From Escherichia phage EscoHU1, in sequence record NC_133119.1: a stretch of 64,000 nt of DNA; one strand, given 5' to 3'. Position numbers and translations under genes: made by a program. Below the pieces are notes generated by a model. The model searched no databases. It was given only the letters and a program-made list of their open reading frames with translations, and was not told the origin of the DNA. This document shows, one piece after another, positions 7,275 through 63,757 of this stretch. Position 1 is the first letter of the stretch. Every line of letters begins with the position of its first letter.

Positions 7275-7521
7275 ACTAACTGATCTGTTAAAAGCTGGAG
7301 ACGTAAAATATCTCCAGCGAGATAGCTGGGAAAATAATGCCTATTCTACCACTATTATCAAAGTAGATGTTGATAATAATGACATCATAGAATTTACTTG
7401 GTGGTGGTCTAAAGATGGGCGTACTAAACTCACGCTAGACGATGCATCGTGGAAAACCACTGAGCTAACTCTAGACGAAGCTCTGGCCGACGATTGGGAG
7501 ATCGTTGAACTAGATGTGTAG
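7267..7521 (+). CDS. hypothetical protein
   Basis: 84 aa; start overlaps upstream stop (coupled). Confidence 0.5.
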   Translation: MSKLTDLLKAGDVKYLQRDSWENNAYSTTIIKVDVDNNDIIEFTWWWSKDGRTKLTLDDASWKTTELTLDEALADDWEIVELDV

Positions 7522-9017: not shown

Positions 9018-9981
9018 TGTAAAAGACTTTATTAAACGTTGTCAAGAAGCGTACTACCAGGGAATGAGTCTTATTTCCGATGAAGAATATGATCGTCTGA
9101 TTAAAAGATTCCCACTAGAGGAAGAAATCGGACCGAAAGGTGATATCCCTCATTTGTATCGTATGTATTCTTTGCAGAAAGTCTATTACGATCGTGGTGA
9201 TAAAGCTCCATTCAACCCACTTGGTCAGGTTGAAACTGATAAGTTAGATGGTTGTGCGATTTCTCTATTATATATTAATGGTGAGTTTGTTCAAGCGTTA
9301 ACTCGTGGTAACGGTATTCTAGGGAATGATGTAACGCATAATGTTAAAATGCTGAACATCCCCAAAACTATTTCCCAAAAAGTACCAACTCAAATCACTG
9401 GTGAAGTTCTCATTACTAAAGAAGTAGAGAACAAACGTAACTATGCTTCTGGTGCTATTAACCTGAAAGATAGTGATGATTTCATGCAACGTATTGGTGA
9501 AGGTGGTTTAATCTTCGTTGCATATGGTATCCAGTGTTCAGCGGAAACAGTCGGTATTACAGAAGCCTATTTAAAAGATATGCTTTGGCTAGAGAATGAG
9601 AACTTCTTGACAGTTATTAATGTTCGTTCCTTCTTTAAATGGATTCCGACAGATGGTAAAGTTGTTCGCATTAACGACAACAATAAATTCTTCCGTGAAG
9701 GTTGGACTAATAAATTTCCTCGTGGTGCATTTGCTATTAAAGAGGATGAAGAAGGCGAAATTACCACACTTGTTAAAGTTGAATGGCAAGTAGGGGCTTC
9801 TGGTAAAGTAACTCCAGTTGGTTATTTCGAACCGGTGATTATTGATGATGCCACAATCGTTAAAGCAACTCTTAATAACGTTGATTATATTAACGCTCTC
9901 GATTTAGAGATCGGTTGCCAGATTCGAGTGATTCGTGCTGGTGGTGTAATCCCTTGTATAGTAGAGCGAGTATACGACTAA
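9007..9981 (+). CDS. NAD-dependent DNA ligase, N-terminal part (adenylation/OB region)
   Basis: 324 aa; adenylation motif KLDG (TDKLDGCAIS); ends before Zn-finger/HhH/BRCT part encoded by next ORF. Confidence 0.85.
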   Translation: MMNNVKDFIKRCQEAYYQGMSLISDEEYDRLIKRFPLEEEIGPKGDIPHLYRMYSLQKVYYDRGDKAPFNPLGQVETDKLDGCAISLLYINGEFVQALTRGNGILGNDVTHNVKMLNIPKTISQKVPTQITGEVLITKEVENKRNYASGAINLKDSDDFMQRIGEGGLIFVAYGIQCSAETVGITEAYLKDMLWLENENFLTVINVRSFFKWIPTDGKVVRINDNNKFFREGWTNKFPRGAFAIKEDEEGEITTLVKVEWQVGASGKVTPVGYFEPVIIDDATIVKATLNNVDYINALDLEIGCQIRVIRAGGVIPCIVERVYD

Positions 9982-10031
9982 TTCGTAACCCTTTGCTACC
10001 CGTTTACCATGTCGGAATTATAAAGTGGTTA

Positions 10032-10060
10032 TTGACATTTTCGCCGCTTAGGTATATACT
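10032..10060 (+). promoter_or_regulatory. sigma70-type promoter (TTGACA-17-TATACT) inside ligase spacer
   Basis: -35 10032-10037, -10 10055-10060. Confidence 0.5.
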
Positions 10061-10124
10061 ATTATCATTCAGTTGAGGGATAGAAAGTTATGGCGAGGGT
10101 AAGCAAAGTTAGTTAAAATTGTAG

Positions 10125-10153
10125 TTGCTAAATGCTTAAATACTTGCTATAAT
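10125..10153 (+). promoter_or_regulatory. sigma70-type early promoter (TTGCTA-17-TATAAT)
   Basis: -35 10125-10130, -10 10148-10153, downstream TATATAAATTGATAAGGAAG leader. Confidence 0.65.
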
Positions 10154-54033: not shown

Positions 54034-54147
54034 GTTAGCGCTAATTACCAATTCTCGAAATCTCATAAGATTACACATGAAGGCGTGCCCAGAGGTTCCC
54101 TAGATGAGAATGAGTCTCATTACCGCCCCGGTACTTAGCAAGCTAAT

Positions 54148-54196: not shown

Positions 54197-54931
54197 TTAG
54201 GCAACTTTTAATTTATCAATGAATTGTTGCGGCGTGGTACTATATTCCGCGCGTTCTTCCTCGGTCATACCTTCCCAACACATTTTTAAACGTTCGGCTA
54301 GGAATTGATAATCGTTATCATCATCTAACGATTCATCAATAAAGGTTTCACCGATCAATGTTACCCCGATTGATAGGATATCGTTAACGGCTTGAGCGTC
54401 CAGCGTTTTAAATCCAGCATTTGCCGCCGCCGATAATACACCTTTATGATCATCAATCATTGTAAAATCAGCGTTCGGGTATAGCTGTTTAAACAGTTCA
54501 AAGTAATAAGATTTATATACAGCGTCTTTGCTGTGGTATATTTCGCTAACCTTATCCGCATCAAAGTATTTATGCAAAGTATCGCGGGAAAATACGCGAA
54601 TATTACTATTTCCGCGCCCTCTTAGACTTTGTTTACGCAAGAAATAATAATCAGATTTACCCATTAAGCGAGCGGTACAAATAAGGTTTAAGGTATTGGG
54701 ATCATTCATACATTGGCGCATATATTCAACCAATGGTAATAAGGAATCCTGCATAATTAATTCATGTTTGCAGGCTTCGCGGGAATACTTAACTAAATCT
54801 AAATTCCCGTTATCGTCAAAGCAAGGCGCTACACGATGGAAAGAATTTATAATCGTTCCGTCTAAATCCCAAATCATAACGCGGGAAATATGCGGGAAAG
54901 TGTGGGTAATATTCATGTTGACTTGATTCAT
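54197..54931 (-). CDS. dmp: HAD-family 5'-deoxyribonucleotidase (T5 Dmp-like)
   Basis: 244 aa; HAD motif I MIWDLDGTI; position next to A1-like gene. Confidence 0.7.
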   Translation of the reverse strand: MNQVNMNITHTFPHISRVMIWDLDGTIINSFHRVAPCFDDNGNLDLVKYSREACKHELIMQDSLLPLVEYMRQCMNDPNTLNLICTARLMGKSDYYFLRKQSLRGRGNSNIRVFSRDTLHKYFDADKVSEIYHSKDAVYKSYYFELFKQLYPNADFTMIDDHKGVLSAAANAGFKTLDAQAVNDILSIGVTLIGETFIDESLDDDNDYQFLAERLKMCWEGMTEEERAEYSTTPQQFIDKLKVA

Positions 54932-55776: not shown

Positions 55777-57441
55777 TTATGCAAAGAATTTACCGTTTTT
55801 GAAATCAATCAAAGTACGTTGCCCGTTTGCATAGGTAATTAAATGCGTTTGCGTCCAGCTTGACGCGCCCACGTTGTAACCCATATCAAGCGACCCCGCC
55901 ACGCCAGCGGTATAAACGCCGCCGTAAATGCTAGCCGTATGAGTATGACCAGTGTTAAGGCGTCCAAGTTTCTTAAACTGCTTAGGATTGCCCCGACTGC
56001 CGTTAATGCCATTGTGACCATGTACGCCGCACTCAATGCCAGCGATTTTAAATGACTGGTCAGTAGTCAGGAAAATAGCGTTAAATTCGCAACCTGCAAC
56101 GTTTCTAAGCGCGTAATCTAGCACGTTAAAGGTATCATCCTTTTCAGCAATAGCGGCGTAAATCGCAGCGTTTAGACGGTGATACAATTCCGCGTTTGCG
56201 GGATCGTCTTTAATGTTAGCGTTACGATCATCAAGCCAGCGTGAAAGAGCTAAATCATGGTTAGATTCCACAATGATTGTTTGAGAGAAATCACGCTCCA
56301 TTGATTCTAATACGCGTCCAGTATCGATAAGATCATCAATAACTTTATCACGTCCTGCGGCGTACTGTTTAGCAAGGAATACACCACTAGCGCGGTTGTG
56401 ATGGTTGCGCGATGTAAAATCATGCACATCATGAATAAACTGATATTTAGGCTTGAGAATATCAAGCAAGCTGTTTTCACTAGCCCATGATGCAACGGCG
56501 CAATCATCATCTAATTTTTCGGCGTGAATATCGCCATATTGCAAGCCTAGAACATGATCGGACGTTTTATAACATCCGGTAGGAGTAGCGCAAACATTCA
56601 AATCATAGAACATTCCGCTTTCATCCATTGTTTCAAGCTGGCGAACGAAAAATTCTCCGTCGTCGTCGAACTCCACCAGCAAAGCGCCGAAATTATGCAG
56701 AGCCTCAGCTTTTTGACCTGCTTTCTGCTGAATGTAGTTTTTAAGCGTAGCCGTTCCGGTTGAATACATACGGCGCACTACTTCACCTTTTAACGCTGGC
56801 ACACTTTCAGCGGTGATTTTAGCGTGACCTATTGCCAGCCCTTCAATATTTAAAGCCGTGGCGGTTTCTGCGAATCCTGAAAGCGGATAATCTGCCGTTG
56901 GTAAAACGTTAATTTCAGCCATGAAAGCAAAGCGGCGGTTATTCAGGAAAACATTTTTATCGCAGATATATTTATCAAATGCGGGATCGTATTTGATTCC
57001 TTCTGCACCTTCCCCGTTCTGGAATCCATTTTTATTATAAATGAATTTACTAATCAGCAATTCAGCACCGATATATTCAGCAAATTTTTCCAGACTTGCT
57101 AAAAAGTTTTTATGCGGGAAAGTATTATTTTGAATCGACGTTAGAATAAAACGGCGACCGGATTTAACTTCCCATTGTTCAACGGTACTAGAAACAATTC
57201 CCGCCGCTTCGGGGCGATCATCATTTTTAATCGCCTTTTCAGCTTTTGCCGCTTTCGGTTTCGCTGGCTTGTTTGCTTCCAGCCAATCACAAATCGCGGT
57301 TGAATGTTTCGGCGTATCATAAACAGCTTTTGAAATATCGTCGCAAACTTCCAATTTAGTAGCGCGTAAACGCTTACCGTAGAAATTAAAATCAGCGGCC
57401 ATTTTCAAAATTTGAGCTTGTTTTTCTGCGGAAATATTCAT
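55777..57441 (-). CDS. A1: A1-like pre-early protein (metallophosphoesterase-type)
   Basis: 554 aa; calcineurin-like phosphoesterase motifs (GDIHAE, GNHD, GHTHTAS); size matches T5 A1. Confidence 0.8.
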   Translation of the reverse strand: MNISAEKQAQILKMAADFNFYGKRLRATKLEVCDDISKAVYDTPKHSTAICDWLEANKPAKPKAAKAEKAIKNDDRPEAAGIVSSTVEQWEVKSGRRFILTSIQNNTFPHKNFLASLEKFAEYIGAELLISKFIYNKNGFQNGEGAEGIKYDPAFDKYICDKNVFLNNRRFAFMAEINVLPTADYPLSGFAETATALNIEGLAIGHAKITAESVPALKGEVVRRMYSTGTATLKNYIQQKAGQKAEALHNFGALLVEFDDDGEFFVRQLETMDESGMFYDLNVCATPTGCYKTSDHVLGLQYGDIHAEKLDDDCAVASWASENSLLDILKPKYQFIHDVHDFTSRNHHNRASGVFLAKQYAAGRDKVIDDLIDTGRVLESMERDFSQTIIVESNHDLALSRWLDDRNANIKDDPANAELYHRLNAAIYAAIAEKDDTFNVLDYALRNVAGCEFNAIFLTTDQSFKIAGIECGVHGHNGINGSRGNPKQFKKLGRLNTGHTHTASIYGGVYTAGVAGSLDMGYNVGASSWTQTHLITYANGQRTLIDFKNGKFFA

Positions 57442-57835: not shown

Positions 57836-58252
57836 TTATTCACCTGCGGCCTGTTTCACTTCCTCCGCTACGCCTAACAATTGCGCCACGGCTTCCAGCG
57901 TTTCCAGTTTTGCACTTTCCAGACTTGCCAGATCATCAGCGTCTTTAATAACGCCAGCATCAATGGCATGTTTAGCCATAACGCGCACATAGTGAGCTTT
58001 ACGGACACTAGACCCGCCGCCAACTTTACGCGGTTTATCGCTTTTCTGGTACGCTTTTGCGCTTGTCAGTTTAGAACGTACAGACACCGGACTAGCAGCG
58101 CCAACGGCGGCGGCAATTTCTTTTAAGCCGTCACTATTCGCAAACTCAATCCCGCTTTTAGCGACCATTTCAGAATACATAGAAACAGCCTTTTCGGTGT
58201 TTTCTTCGTTCCAAGAAAATTTTGCGGTTTTTTCGGTTTTAACGTTAGACAT
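57836..58252 (-). CDS. putative A2-like pre-early DNA-binding protein
   Basis: 138 aa; assigned by position upstream of A1-like gene and size only. Confidence 0.45.
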   Translation of the reverse strand: MSNVKTEKTAKFSWNEENTEKAVSMYSEMVAKSGIEFANSDGLKEIAAAVGAASPVSVRSKLTSAKAYQKSDKPRKVGGGSSVRKAHYVRVMAKHAIDAGVIKDADDLASLESAKLETLEAVAQLLGVAEEVKQAAGE

Positions 58253-59650: not shown

Positions 59651-59721
59651 ATACTTATAAATTAAAGAGAAATAATAACTATAAGAAACTATCGGCTAAG
59701 TGAGAACCACTATCATTTAGG

Positions 59722-59782: not shown

Positions 59783-59829
59783 TTATCCACAGACTTATGT
59801 ACAGGTTATCCTACTGTATAAATATACAG
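59783..59829 (+). repeat. 47-bp inverted repeat, left copy (DnaA box + SOS-box-like palindrome)
   Basis: 41/47 identical to reverse complement of 63213-63259; begins with TTATCCACA 59783-59791. Confidence 0.7.
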
Positions 59830-59830
59830 G
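59811..59830. promoter_or_regulatory. LexA (SOS) box-like palindrome CTGTATAAATATACAG
   Basis: CTGT-N8-ACAG with AT-rich centre; matches E. coli LexA consensus TACTGTATATATATACAGTA at 17/20. Confidence 0.55.
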
Positions 59831-60017
59831 GTAGAATGGTAGCAGTAACAACCGCAATCAAATTTAAGCGGCCTAAAACGCGTTCTAAGCGGTTTTTCAG
59901 CATTACCCCTTATTATAATAAAGCCTTGTGTACGCTTACAGAGAGCTAGAAATAGAAAACGCGCGGTTAGCACAAAAATAGGCAGTAGGCAAGGAATAAA
60001 AAACCTTTTCTTTTTTC

Positions 60018-62742: not shown

Positions 62743-62772
62743 CGCTGGGAAACATTCCCAGCGTTTACGATT
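62743..62772 (+). terminator. terminator-like hairpin
   Basis: CGCTGGGA-AACA-TCCCAGCG followed by TTTACGATTT. Confidence 0.45.
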
Positions 62773-62826
62773 TGGTAATGGCTTCACAATGATATTGATA
62801 ATCATTCTCATTCTAGGAGCAATGGC

Positions 62827-63066
62827 ATGGCTGTAAGAATTTTACGATATGTAGAACGTAAAGAAACCGATATTATGCAGCATCATTTAACTGATGCGCA
62901 ATATGCGCAATTTTTAGAAATGCAGAAAAGCGGAGCTAGTACGGCGGCGCTAGGGGCGTGGATCAATTCAGTTTCAATATGTACGCATTTTGATTCATAC
63001 GGATATACGCCAGCCGAAACCGTCCAGATCTTTGACGACTACGAGAAGGAATACATAGCAGACTAA
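62827..63066 (+). CDS. hypothetical small protein
   Basis: 79 aa; RBS TAGGAGCA. Confidence 0.5.
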   Translation: MAVRILRYVERKETDIMQHHLTDAQYAQFLEMQKSGASTAALGAWINSVSICTHFDSYGYTPAETVQIFDDYEKEYIAD

Positions 63067-63210: not shown

Positions 63211-63230
63211 TACTGTATAAATATACAGTA
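63211..63230. promoter_or_regulatory. LexA (SOS) box-like palindrome TACTGTATAAATATACAGTA
   Basis: 19/20 match to E. coli LexA consensus; core 16-mer identical to 59814-59829. Confidence 0.6.
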
Positions 63231-63259
63231 GAATAACCTGTTGATAAGTCTGTTGATAA
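63213..63259 (-). repeat. 47-bp inverted repeat, right copy (SOS-box-like palindrome + degenerate DnaA boxes)
   Basis: reverse complement is 41/47 identical to 59783-59829; contains TGTTGATAA twice. Confidence 0.7.
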
Positions 63260-63352
63260 CGCCTCAAAATCGCTAGGATTTTGTCAGGTCAAATCGTGCT
63301 GTTAATAAACCTGTGAATAAATTAAATAACAGTGTTTCTCACTTCACTTTGT

Positions 63353-63497
63353 AAATGCGAGTCATTCTCGTTATCATTCGCGTTTCCCTTCCTAAATGCA
63401 AATCATTCTCATTCGTATTCCGGTAGTCAAATGATAACCATTCTCATTCGCATTCAACTTCTCAAATGCGAATCAATCTCATTATCATTCGCATTTT
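63353..63497 (+). repeat. tandem array of four imperfect palindromic units (consensus AAATGCGAATCATTCTCATT-N-CATTCGCATT)
   Basis: units start at 63353, 63394, 63429, 63464 (35-41 bp period); each unit is internally palindromic. Confidence 0.75.
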
Positions 63498-63502
63498 GGC
63501 AG

Positions 63503-63535
63503 GCAGGGCATTTTCATTTTGCCCTGCGCTTTTGT
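63503..63535 (+). terminator. hairpin between repeat arrays
   Basis: GCAGGGC-ATTTTCATTTT-GCCCTGC followed by GCTTTTG. Confidence 0.35.
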
Positions 63536-63757
63536 GCAAATCCGACATTTGCCCCCACGGATTACGTGCCAGCGTGCATGTGCGAATCCGACAATTTTTG
63601 GTAGTGTGCAAATCCGATGGCAAATATTTTTTATATGTGCGAATCCGACAATGAATTTTCCTAAAAACTCCAGCAATCACGAGTGCGGCTCGATTCCTGT
63701 GGAATTAGCTAGAATATGCGCAGAACCGACAAGCGTTAAGGTGTGCGAATCCGACAA
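63533..63757 (+). repeat. six direct copies of a 16-bp motif TGTGCGAATCCGACAA
   Basis: copies at 63533, 63579, 63605, 63636, 63717, 63742, all same orientation, irregular 25-81 bp spacing. Confidence 0.75.

Follow-up and report, generated by a model that had tools for sequence, protein, structure and literature searches.

A conserved tandem array near the right end of the EscoHU1 terminal repeat matches clusters of Fur boxes

The terminal repeat of EscoHU1 and the array at its right end

The window studied here is the whole analysed stretch of Escherichia phage EscoHU1 (NC_133119.1), with a length of 64,000 nucleotides. BLAST shows it to be DNA of a T5-like phage, with Salmonella phage JNwz02 as the best match (96%), and hundreds of Epseptimavirus and Tequintavirus records also match. 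The left terminus of T5 aligns to about position 54086, and therefore the terminal repeat lies inside the window in full (roughly 54.09 to 63.8-64.0 kb). The array reported below is located near the right end of this repeat, in its convergent non-coding part, and the same repeat holds dmp, A1 and A2 as assigned by PHROG, as expected of a T5-like phage. The features are listed here with their strand where one applies; bits are scores by the Fur position weight matrix (PWM) that is described further below.

54197-54931, minus strand: dmp-like gene
55777-57441, minus strand: A1 (DNA transfer protein)
57836-58252, minus strand: A2, of a PHROG family named 'DNA binding protein'
59699-59717: Fur-PWM site, 18.4 bits, adjoining the second, inverted DnaA-box/palindrome D module (T5 'Repeat Region 2')
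62788-62812: isolated double Fur-type site, 18.0 + 22.5 bits; the 22.5-bit site at 62794-62812 is the strongest isolated one
63211-63230: palindrome D (palD), TACTGTATAAATATACAGTA, with an inverted copy at 59814-59833, thus two per terminal repeat
63239-63259: pair of DnaA-box-like 9-mers, TGTTGATAA twice, 3 bp apart, counterpart of T5 inverted repeat D' (IRD')
63300-63320: pair of DnaA-box-like 9-mers, TGTTAATAA and the consensus TGTGAATAA, 3 bp apart, counterpart of T5 inverted repeat C' (IRC')
63353-63385: array unit 1, 41-bp type, counterpart of T5 direct repeat C (DRC) copy 1 / palindrome E (palE); 16.5 bits at 63354 for the primary Fur-PWM site, 9.1 bits at 63360 for its satellite
63394-63420: array unit 2, 35-bp type; 19.6 bits at 63395 for the Fur-PWM site, 5.5 bits at +6 for its satellite
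63429-63455: array unit 3, 35-bp type; 23.0 bits at 63430 for the Fur-PWM site, 7.2 bits at +6 for its satellite
63464-63497: array unit 4, long type, counterpart of T5 DRC copy 4 / palI; 16.7 bits at 63465 for the Fur-PWM site, 10.4 bits at +6 and 7.7 bits at +12 for its satellites
63503-63529: equivalent of palindrome J (palJ), a GC-rich hairpin ending in CTGCGC, where the major 7.9% single-strand nick of T5 is annotated
63533-63757, plus strand: direct repeat D (DRD) family, TGTGCRAATCCGAC, 5-6 copies, running to the end of the terminal repeat

A repeat search of the window finds the array as four direct-repeat units, which start at 63353, 63394, 63429 and 63464 and thus have a start-to-start spacing of 41/35/35 bp. 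This bears out the original prediction, made from the letters of the sequence, of four tandem palindromic units with a 35-41 bp period, and its consensus is also accurate. Tandem Repeats Finder reports units 2-4 only (period 35, score 103), skipping unit 1 because of its longer period. On the inverted half-sites described for each unit the prediction goes somewhat too far: arms forming a perfect inverted repeat, 10 bp long (AAATGCGAAT/ATTCGCATTT), occur in unit 4 only, those of units 1-3 being imperfect. The description of the units as sites of the kind bound by dimeric proteins holds. In fact the palindrome of a unit, 25 bp in length and of the form AATGCGAAT-N7-ATTCGCATT, consists of two overlapping 19-bp Fur-type sites with an offset of exactly 6 bp, and the 41-bp units have one hexamer more. 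The array was also said to have no coding potential, which is reasonable: open reading frames called mechanically overlap it, most relatives carry no annotation there, and the conservation follows core versus spacer and is not codon-like. An Rfam search gives a chance-level match only (E = 0.71), and a search of a plasmid collection with the window gives no match.

Counterpart of the array in phage T5

Pairwise alignment with the feature table of AY587007 shows that the units of the window align column for column with DRC copies 1-4 of T5, with 2-5 mismatches in 27 nt against the DRC consensus. In AY587007 the order is palindrome D, inverted repeat D', direct repeat B and inverted repeat C', next the four DRC copies with palindromes E-I (9468-9637), and after these palindrome J with the major 7.9% nick and the DRD copies. 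The EscoHU1 array likewise stands between the IRC' pair of DnaA boxes and palindrome J, the 7.9% nick and the DRD repeats, and the same order is found in at least 15 other phages. The record AY543070 labels positions 9140-10149 of T5 as 'injection stop signal (iss)', hence the placement near the end of the terminal repeat given by the original prediction is right, namely at the right end of a T5-like repeat and within the region that T5 records annotate as iss. That the iss acts in cis to stop the first-step transfer is a hypothesis even for T5.

The EscoHU1 and T5 arrays share their position, their unit core and a direct alignment. They differ in that EscoHU1 has four full units with left arms of the AAATGCG type, while T5 has three strong units (DRC1, DRC3 and DRC4 with 18.2, 23.6 and 18.9 bits) besides degenerate half-units, with arms of the AAATGAG type; further Fur-PWM sites of T5 lie in Repeat Region 2 and in dmp. 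The array as a repeat is therefore already known and annotated in T5, and what is new is the reading of its units as Fur boxes. The preprint of Davison (bioRxiv 10.1101/866236) treats the region as 'Repeat Region 3', describes its conservation in 25 phages and its DnaA boxes, and proposes membrane-bound DnaA as the stop factor; it leaves DRC without a function, and Fur and LexA do not appear in it. In the searchable literature, with older subscription papers outside of it, we found no link between T5 and Fur. The original prediction, right about the palindromic units, had missed both their identity with DRC/palE-I and the overlapping Fur boxes.

Match of the units to the Fur box

The Fur PWM was obtained by an unseeded, palindrome-symmetrised EM motif search in nine Fur-repressed intergenic regions of MG1655 (fepA-fes, fepD-entS, fepB-entC, fhuA, cirA, fiu, fecI, tonB and exbB). 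The motif learned de novo is AATGATAATCATTATCATT (14.2 bits); the best sites of the training regions score 12.5-21.7 bits, and secondary sites are found in these regions at 6-bp offsets. On the array, units 1-4 score 16.5, 19.6, 23.0 and 16.7 bits. When each region is left out in turn, the left-out E. coli Fur sites score 9.1-20.4 bits (mean 16.1) and the array units 16.2, 19.4, 22.7 and 16.5 bits, where the PWM comes from nine promoters and the full model served as the starting point of each leave-one-out run. In 37.5 kb of non-training E. coli DNA there is only one position of at least 12 bits, located in the fecR-fecA intergenic region.

The motif concentrates in the terminal repeat. In its 9.9 kb there are 15 sites of at least 10 bits against 1.19 expected (maximum 5 in 300 simulations), the null models being first-order Markov simulations and not exact dinucleotide shuffles, and the other 54 kb of the window have 3 such sites. 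With a PWM built from the units of other phages only, all matches of at least 10 bits fall within 54.1-63.5 kb, with about 1.2 expected in 64 kb, and the array is far more than chance would give. Some of the matches in the terminal repeat fall within genes such as dmp and may be no more than a by-product of the coding sequence; the one at 54304, inside conserved dmp coding sequence, may reflect coding and not function.

The hexamer register is a second property of the arrays. Satellites of at least 8 bits are found at +6 bp only (42 cases in 28 distinct arrays), and 61 of 78 unit spacings are congruent to 5 mod 6 (17, 23, 29, 35, 41 and 47 bp), the remaining, longer ones being mostly sums of 6k+5 steps. 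Spacings that change in 6-bp steps show that the units gain or lose whole hexamers. The units vary mainly at positions that Fur tolerates and with the same minor alleles, and the information profiles of units and Fur sites have a Spearman correlation of 0.65, which is partly circular since the units were chosen with the Fur PWM. Over the array, promoters are represented by weak 9/12 consensus matches, which are not significantly above shuffled sequence and are not kept in all clades; a scan of the array together with the divergent pre-early intergenic region likewise gives weak consensus matches, none of them assignable.

Conservation among T5-like phages

The original prediction had proposed a search of other T5-like genomes for the unit, and the array turns out to be conserved in relatives, on the whole in more than 500 phage records. 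Arrays of 3-8 units are found in phages of E. coli, Salmonella, Klebsiella and Erwinia, and all Tequintavirus, Epseptimavirus and Sugarlandvirus phages examined have 3-5 sites of 15-24 bits. A pattern scan of IMG/VR for the palD-GGATAA junction returns the same three clades only. The distance from palD to the first site of the array is nearly constant, 141-144 bp with +141 in almost all contexts, whereas the sequences between the units diverge. Phages of more distant hosts were reached by tblastn with A1. Among them, Erwinia phage KEY (A1 identity 65%) fills the slot with eight sites that score 14-20 bits, and in Proteus phage Stubb the slot holds one strong Fur-type site.

In Vibrio phages the slot is occupied differently. 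Vibrio phage phi 3 carries an unrelated 4.5 x 30 bp tandem array with the unit ATTAGCTAGAACTAATAAAGGTAAGGCTAA, and Vibrio phage VCPH an unrelated one of about 9 x 15 bp. These arrays agree with that of EscoHU1 in lying between the DnaA-box module and a GCGC palindrome with DRD-like repeats and in being tandem and partly palindromic, and they differ in a unit sequence that is unrelated and not Fur-like. Isolated Fur-type sites are present in both phages, one of 20.9 bits at -244 from palD in VCPH and one of 21.6 bits elsewhere in the repeat of phi 3. What is conserved is thus an architecture in which dimer-type sites in tandem are flanked by the DnaA-box module on one side and the nick palindrome on the other, and the Fur-box identity of the array, as judged by motif score, is specific to phages of Enterobacterales. 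The different Vibrio array fits a binder that co-varies with the phage clade, and a Fur-type array is not universal.

CTGCGC, the motif of the 7.9% nick site of T5, comes immediately after the array slot in all clades, those of Vibrio and Proteus with their differing arrays among them (63526-63529 in the window, ~7490-7510 in sequence L066 and ~11410 in sequence L065). Adjacency to the nick site is thus more conserved than the sequence of the array. In some relatives (S.Kent 1-2-1, MET_P1_179_112 and Shivani) the match to the iss is interrupted by about 1.1 kb, for which the annotation shows an HNH homing endonuclease, and therefore the iss region tolerates a large insertion.

Neighbouring elements and isolated Fur-type sites

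Palindrome D is kept in T5-like phages of E. coli, Salmonella, Klebsiella, Erwinia and Vibrio, and in a degenerate form in Proteus. With 19 of 20 positions agreeing with the LexA consensus, it is by sequence a near-consensus LexA (SOS) box.

Several Fur-type sites lie outside the array. The isolated double site at 62788-62812 is 14 bp upstream of the ATG of a 79-aa open reading frame (62827-63066, PHROG 12351), and a terminator-like hairpin (62743-62763) precedes the strong site at 62794-62812; the frame may be an iron-regulated pre-early gene. In most relatives an equivalent isolated site precedes palD by 182-426 bp; T5 has none, and in Tequintaviruses the site is located downstream of the last open reading frame instead. 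The site at 59699-59717 belongs to the large intergenic region between the divergent pre-early operons and is found at +112 from palD in many relatives. At the other end of the repeat, a palindromic Fur-type site, GATGAGAATGAGTCTCATT, with 13.7 bits (54103-54121) stands close to the left genome terminus as inferred, at a distance of about 17 bp; in V. cholerae phage phi 3 a Fur-type site of 15.9 bits is found at genome position 30, and T5 is without a terminus site.

Between the DRD copies we observe another motif, TTAGCTAGAA(CT), which is common to the window (63697-63712), T5 and Proteus phage Stubb, with positions 7340-7490 in L066 and ~11740 in L065. In Vibrio phi 3 amplification of this motif makes up the 4.5 x 30-bp array, which takes the place of the Fur-type one. 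The motif seems to be a second element of the iss region conserved for protein binding.

As for the proteins of the window, tblastn with an E. coli Fur sequence detects no Fur homologue (best E 0.07). The N-terminal half of A2 (FSWNEENTEKAV...GLKEIAAAVG...SVRSKL) resembles by eye a helix-turn-helix of the Myb/GcrA type; A2 has no match in Pfam or PDB, and the search of solved structures gives no significant result for it.

A candidate cluster of host Fur sites and the alternatives

The array, as the counterpart of T5 DRC and palE-I in the iss, is in our judgement most probably a set of clustered sites to which the host Fur protein binds, at a probability of roughly 0.55. This reading draws on the units, which are homologous to DRC, score like genuine Fur boxes and keep the hexamer register, and on a motif that is conserved among phages and concentrated in the terminal repeat; the lack of a Fur homologue in the window and the weak hairpins of three of the four units also count in its favour. 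Each unit of 35-41 bp would provide one strong 19-bp Fur box with one or two weaker boxes offset by 6 bp, two Fur dimers could occupy each offset pair on opposite faces of the helix, and Fe2+-Fur could in this way cover most of the ~145-bp array with roughly 8-10 dimers. Every predicted site tried by gel shift in the work of Chen et al. (2007, PMC2189734) bound Fur, which suggests that binding to the array in vitro is likely.

Lying directly right of the LexA-like box and the two pairs of DnaA boxes, and directly left of the nick-site palindrome and the DRD repeats, the array is on the last DNA that enters in the first-step transfer, when only host proteins are present. We infer from the sequence that Fur would bind the array, and we also infer that the Fur, DnaA and LexA sites would form a host-protein complex. 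The complex could report the state of the host (iron, SOS, replication) to the phage, or could help to keep the DNA in place or in order where the first step of transfer gives way to the second. The biological role is less certain than the binding. Bound Fur might sense the iron status and regulate the pre-early programme by it, might have an architectural part in processing of the nick or of the repeat end, or might contribute to holding the DNA at the iss.

Several observations speak against the Fur reading. The T5-like phages of Vibrio carry a different array although Fur specificity is reported to be conserved among distant bacteria, with highly similar models for E. coli, P. aeruginosa and B. 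subtilis (PMC2189734). No convincing promoter overlaps the array, and fur was not reported as a host requirement of T5 in one published screen. In the same screen FeoB overexpression protected against T5, which its authors attribute to repression of fhuA.

A far-reaching version would make Fur, together with DnaA and LexA, the host component that recognises the iss, with two-step transfer, or the length of its pause, gated by the iron status of the host in T5-like phages of Enterobacterales. We consider it improbable. FhuA and FepA, which these phages use as receptors, are Fur-regulated, and an iron gate would fit this use. The different Vibrio array, the lack of a reported fur requirement and the physics of capsid pressure argue against a necessary role of Fur in the stop, since it is hard to see how a cytoplasmic protein would arrest an ejection that is driven by pressure from the capsid.

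The units could instead be operators for a protein of the phage itself, their likeness to Fur boxes being coincidence or mimicry, with the pre-early A2, a late protein that positions the 7.9% nick, or the protein that cuts the end of the terminal repeat as candidate binders. A2 is encoded in the same terminal repeat and bears the family name of a DNA binding protein, immediately next to the array come the conserved nick palindrome with its CTGCGC and the DRD repeats, which reach the end of the repeat, and the different array of the Vibrio relatives, whose A1 is about 33% identical, is what co-evolution with a phage protein would predict. However, such an operator would need to coincide with the Fur box at 16-23 bits per unit and in the 6-bp register as well. 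In addition, the motif stays unchanged from T5 to Erwinia phage KEY over the fall of A1 identity to 65%, Vibrio phage VCPH retains an isolated site of equal quality, and no evidence of sequence specificity in A2 was found by the search of solved structures. A phage binder is the main rival, if a rather unlikely one.

The palindromes could also act as DNA structures or as cleavage sites. Davison lists palindromes D-J, palE-I among them, as candidate A1 cleavage sites, and the palindromes might then be targets of a restriction-like A1/A2 cleavage that sets the first-step DNA free, as in that model, or cruciforms and hairpins that stall the transfer. The whole array as single-stranded DNA does fold better than shuffled sequence (z = -4.2), with a hairpin of -7.7 kcal/mol in unit 4; the palJ hairpin has -9.3 kcal/mol. 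However, units 1-3 fold weakly (-1.1 to -3.4 kcal/mol, loops of 5-9 nt), mostly within the shuffled range, and what is conserved across phages is the Fur-type core and not the complementarity of stems. Extrusion of cruciforms from short AT-rich stems with large loops is also unfavourable. With three of the four units folding weakly, hairpins or cruciforms are rejected as the main explanation, and structure or cleavage as a whole we hold to be highly improbable. As to other host regulators, ArgR, Zur, TyrR and IHF were compared by eye through their consensus sequences and rejected, for a misfit of half-site spacing or of sequence.

The iteron or origin label attached to the array by the original prediction can hardly be true: the tandem repeats do stand next to four DnaA-type boxes, which might serve initiation as at plasmid and phage origins, but the gene neighbourhood and PHROG searches show no initiator or rep gene near the array, the units are palindromic composites of 35-41 bp and not iterons of 17-22 bp, and the T5 origins are located near the middle of the genome with replication genes silent during first-step transfer (Davison, bioRxiv 10.1101/866236). 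The role in injection stop or packaging that the original prediction also named is a possibility, as it is in the literature.

The stop of T5 DNA transfer at 8%, reached without phage protein synthesis, is a question that has been open for decades, and the only current proposal of a host factor for it is DnaA. Among the most conserved blocks of the iss there is an array of operator-grade Fur boxes, beside a box of the LexA type and DnaA boxes, and reading the units as Fur boxes makes the two-step injection problem of T5 directly and cheaply testable. If Fur binds, this would be a rare case of a virulent phage that reads the iron status of its host on the first injected DNA; if Fur does not bind, the exact mimicry of a Fur box by a phage operator needs explaining.

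Comparison with known Fur sites

Host Fur operators on phage DNA have precedents, as nohA is a gene of the Qin prophage and the stx1 promoter is a Fur site on phage DNA. The EscoHU1 array would share with both sites a host Fur operator, here a predicted one, carried on phage DNA. They are single promoter-proximal operators that control a gene, while EscoHU1 has a multi-unit array without an evident regulated gene. Of these sites, that of nohA was shifted by Fur (Chen et al. 2007, PMC2189734).

The same work describes overlapping Fur sites 6 (or 3) bp apart, an arrangement of two dimers, and site clusters up to about 140 bp long, and 83% of the E. coli Fur clusters overlap a promoter (PMC2189734). 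Compared with the E. coli clusters at fepA-fes, fepB-entC, fhuA, cirA, fecI and exbB, the array has the same 19-bp motif with an equal or higher score, the same overlap of sites exactly 6 bp apart and a cluster length like theirs, which reaches about 140 bp. The differences are those of layout and location: the phage arrays are regular tandems of 3-8 composite units with a 6k+5 bp period, and the array is located in a convergent non-coding part of the terminal repeat of a virulent phage, with no clear promoter.
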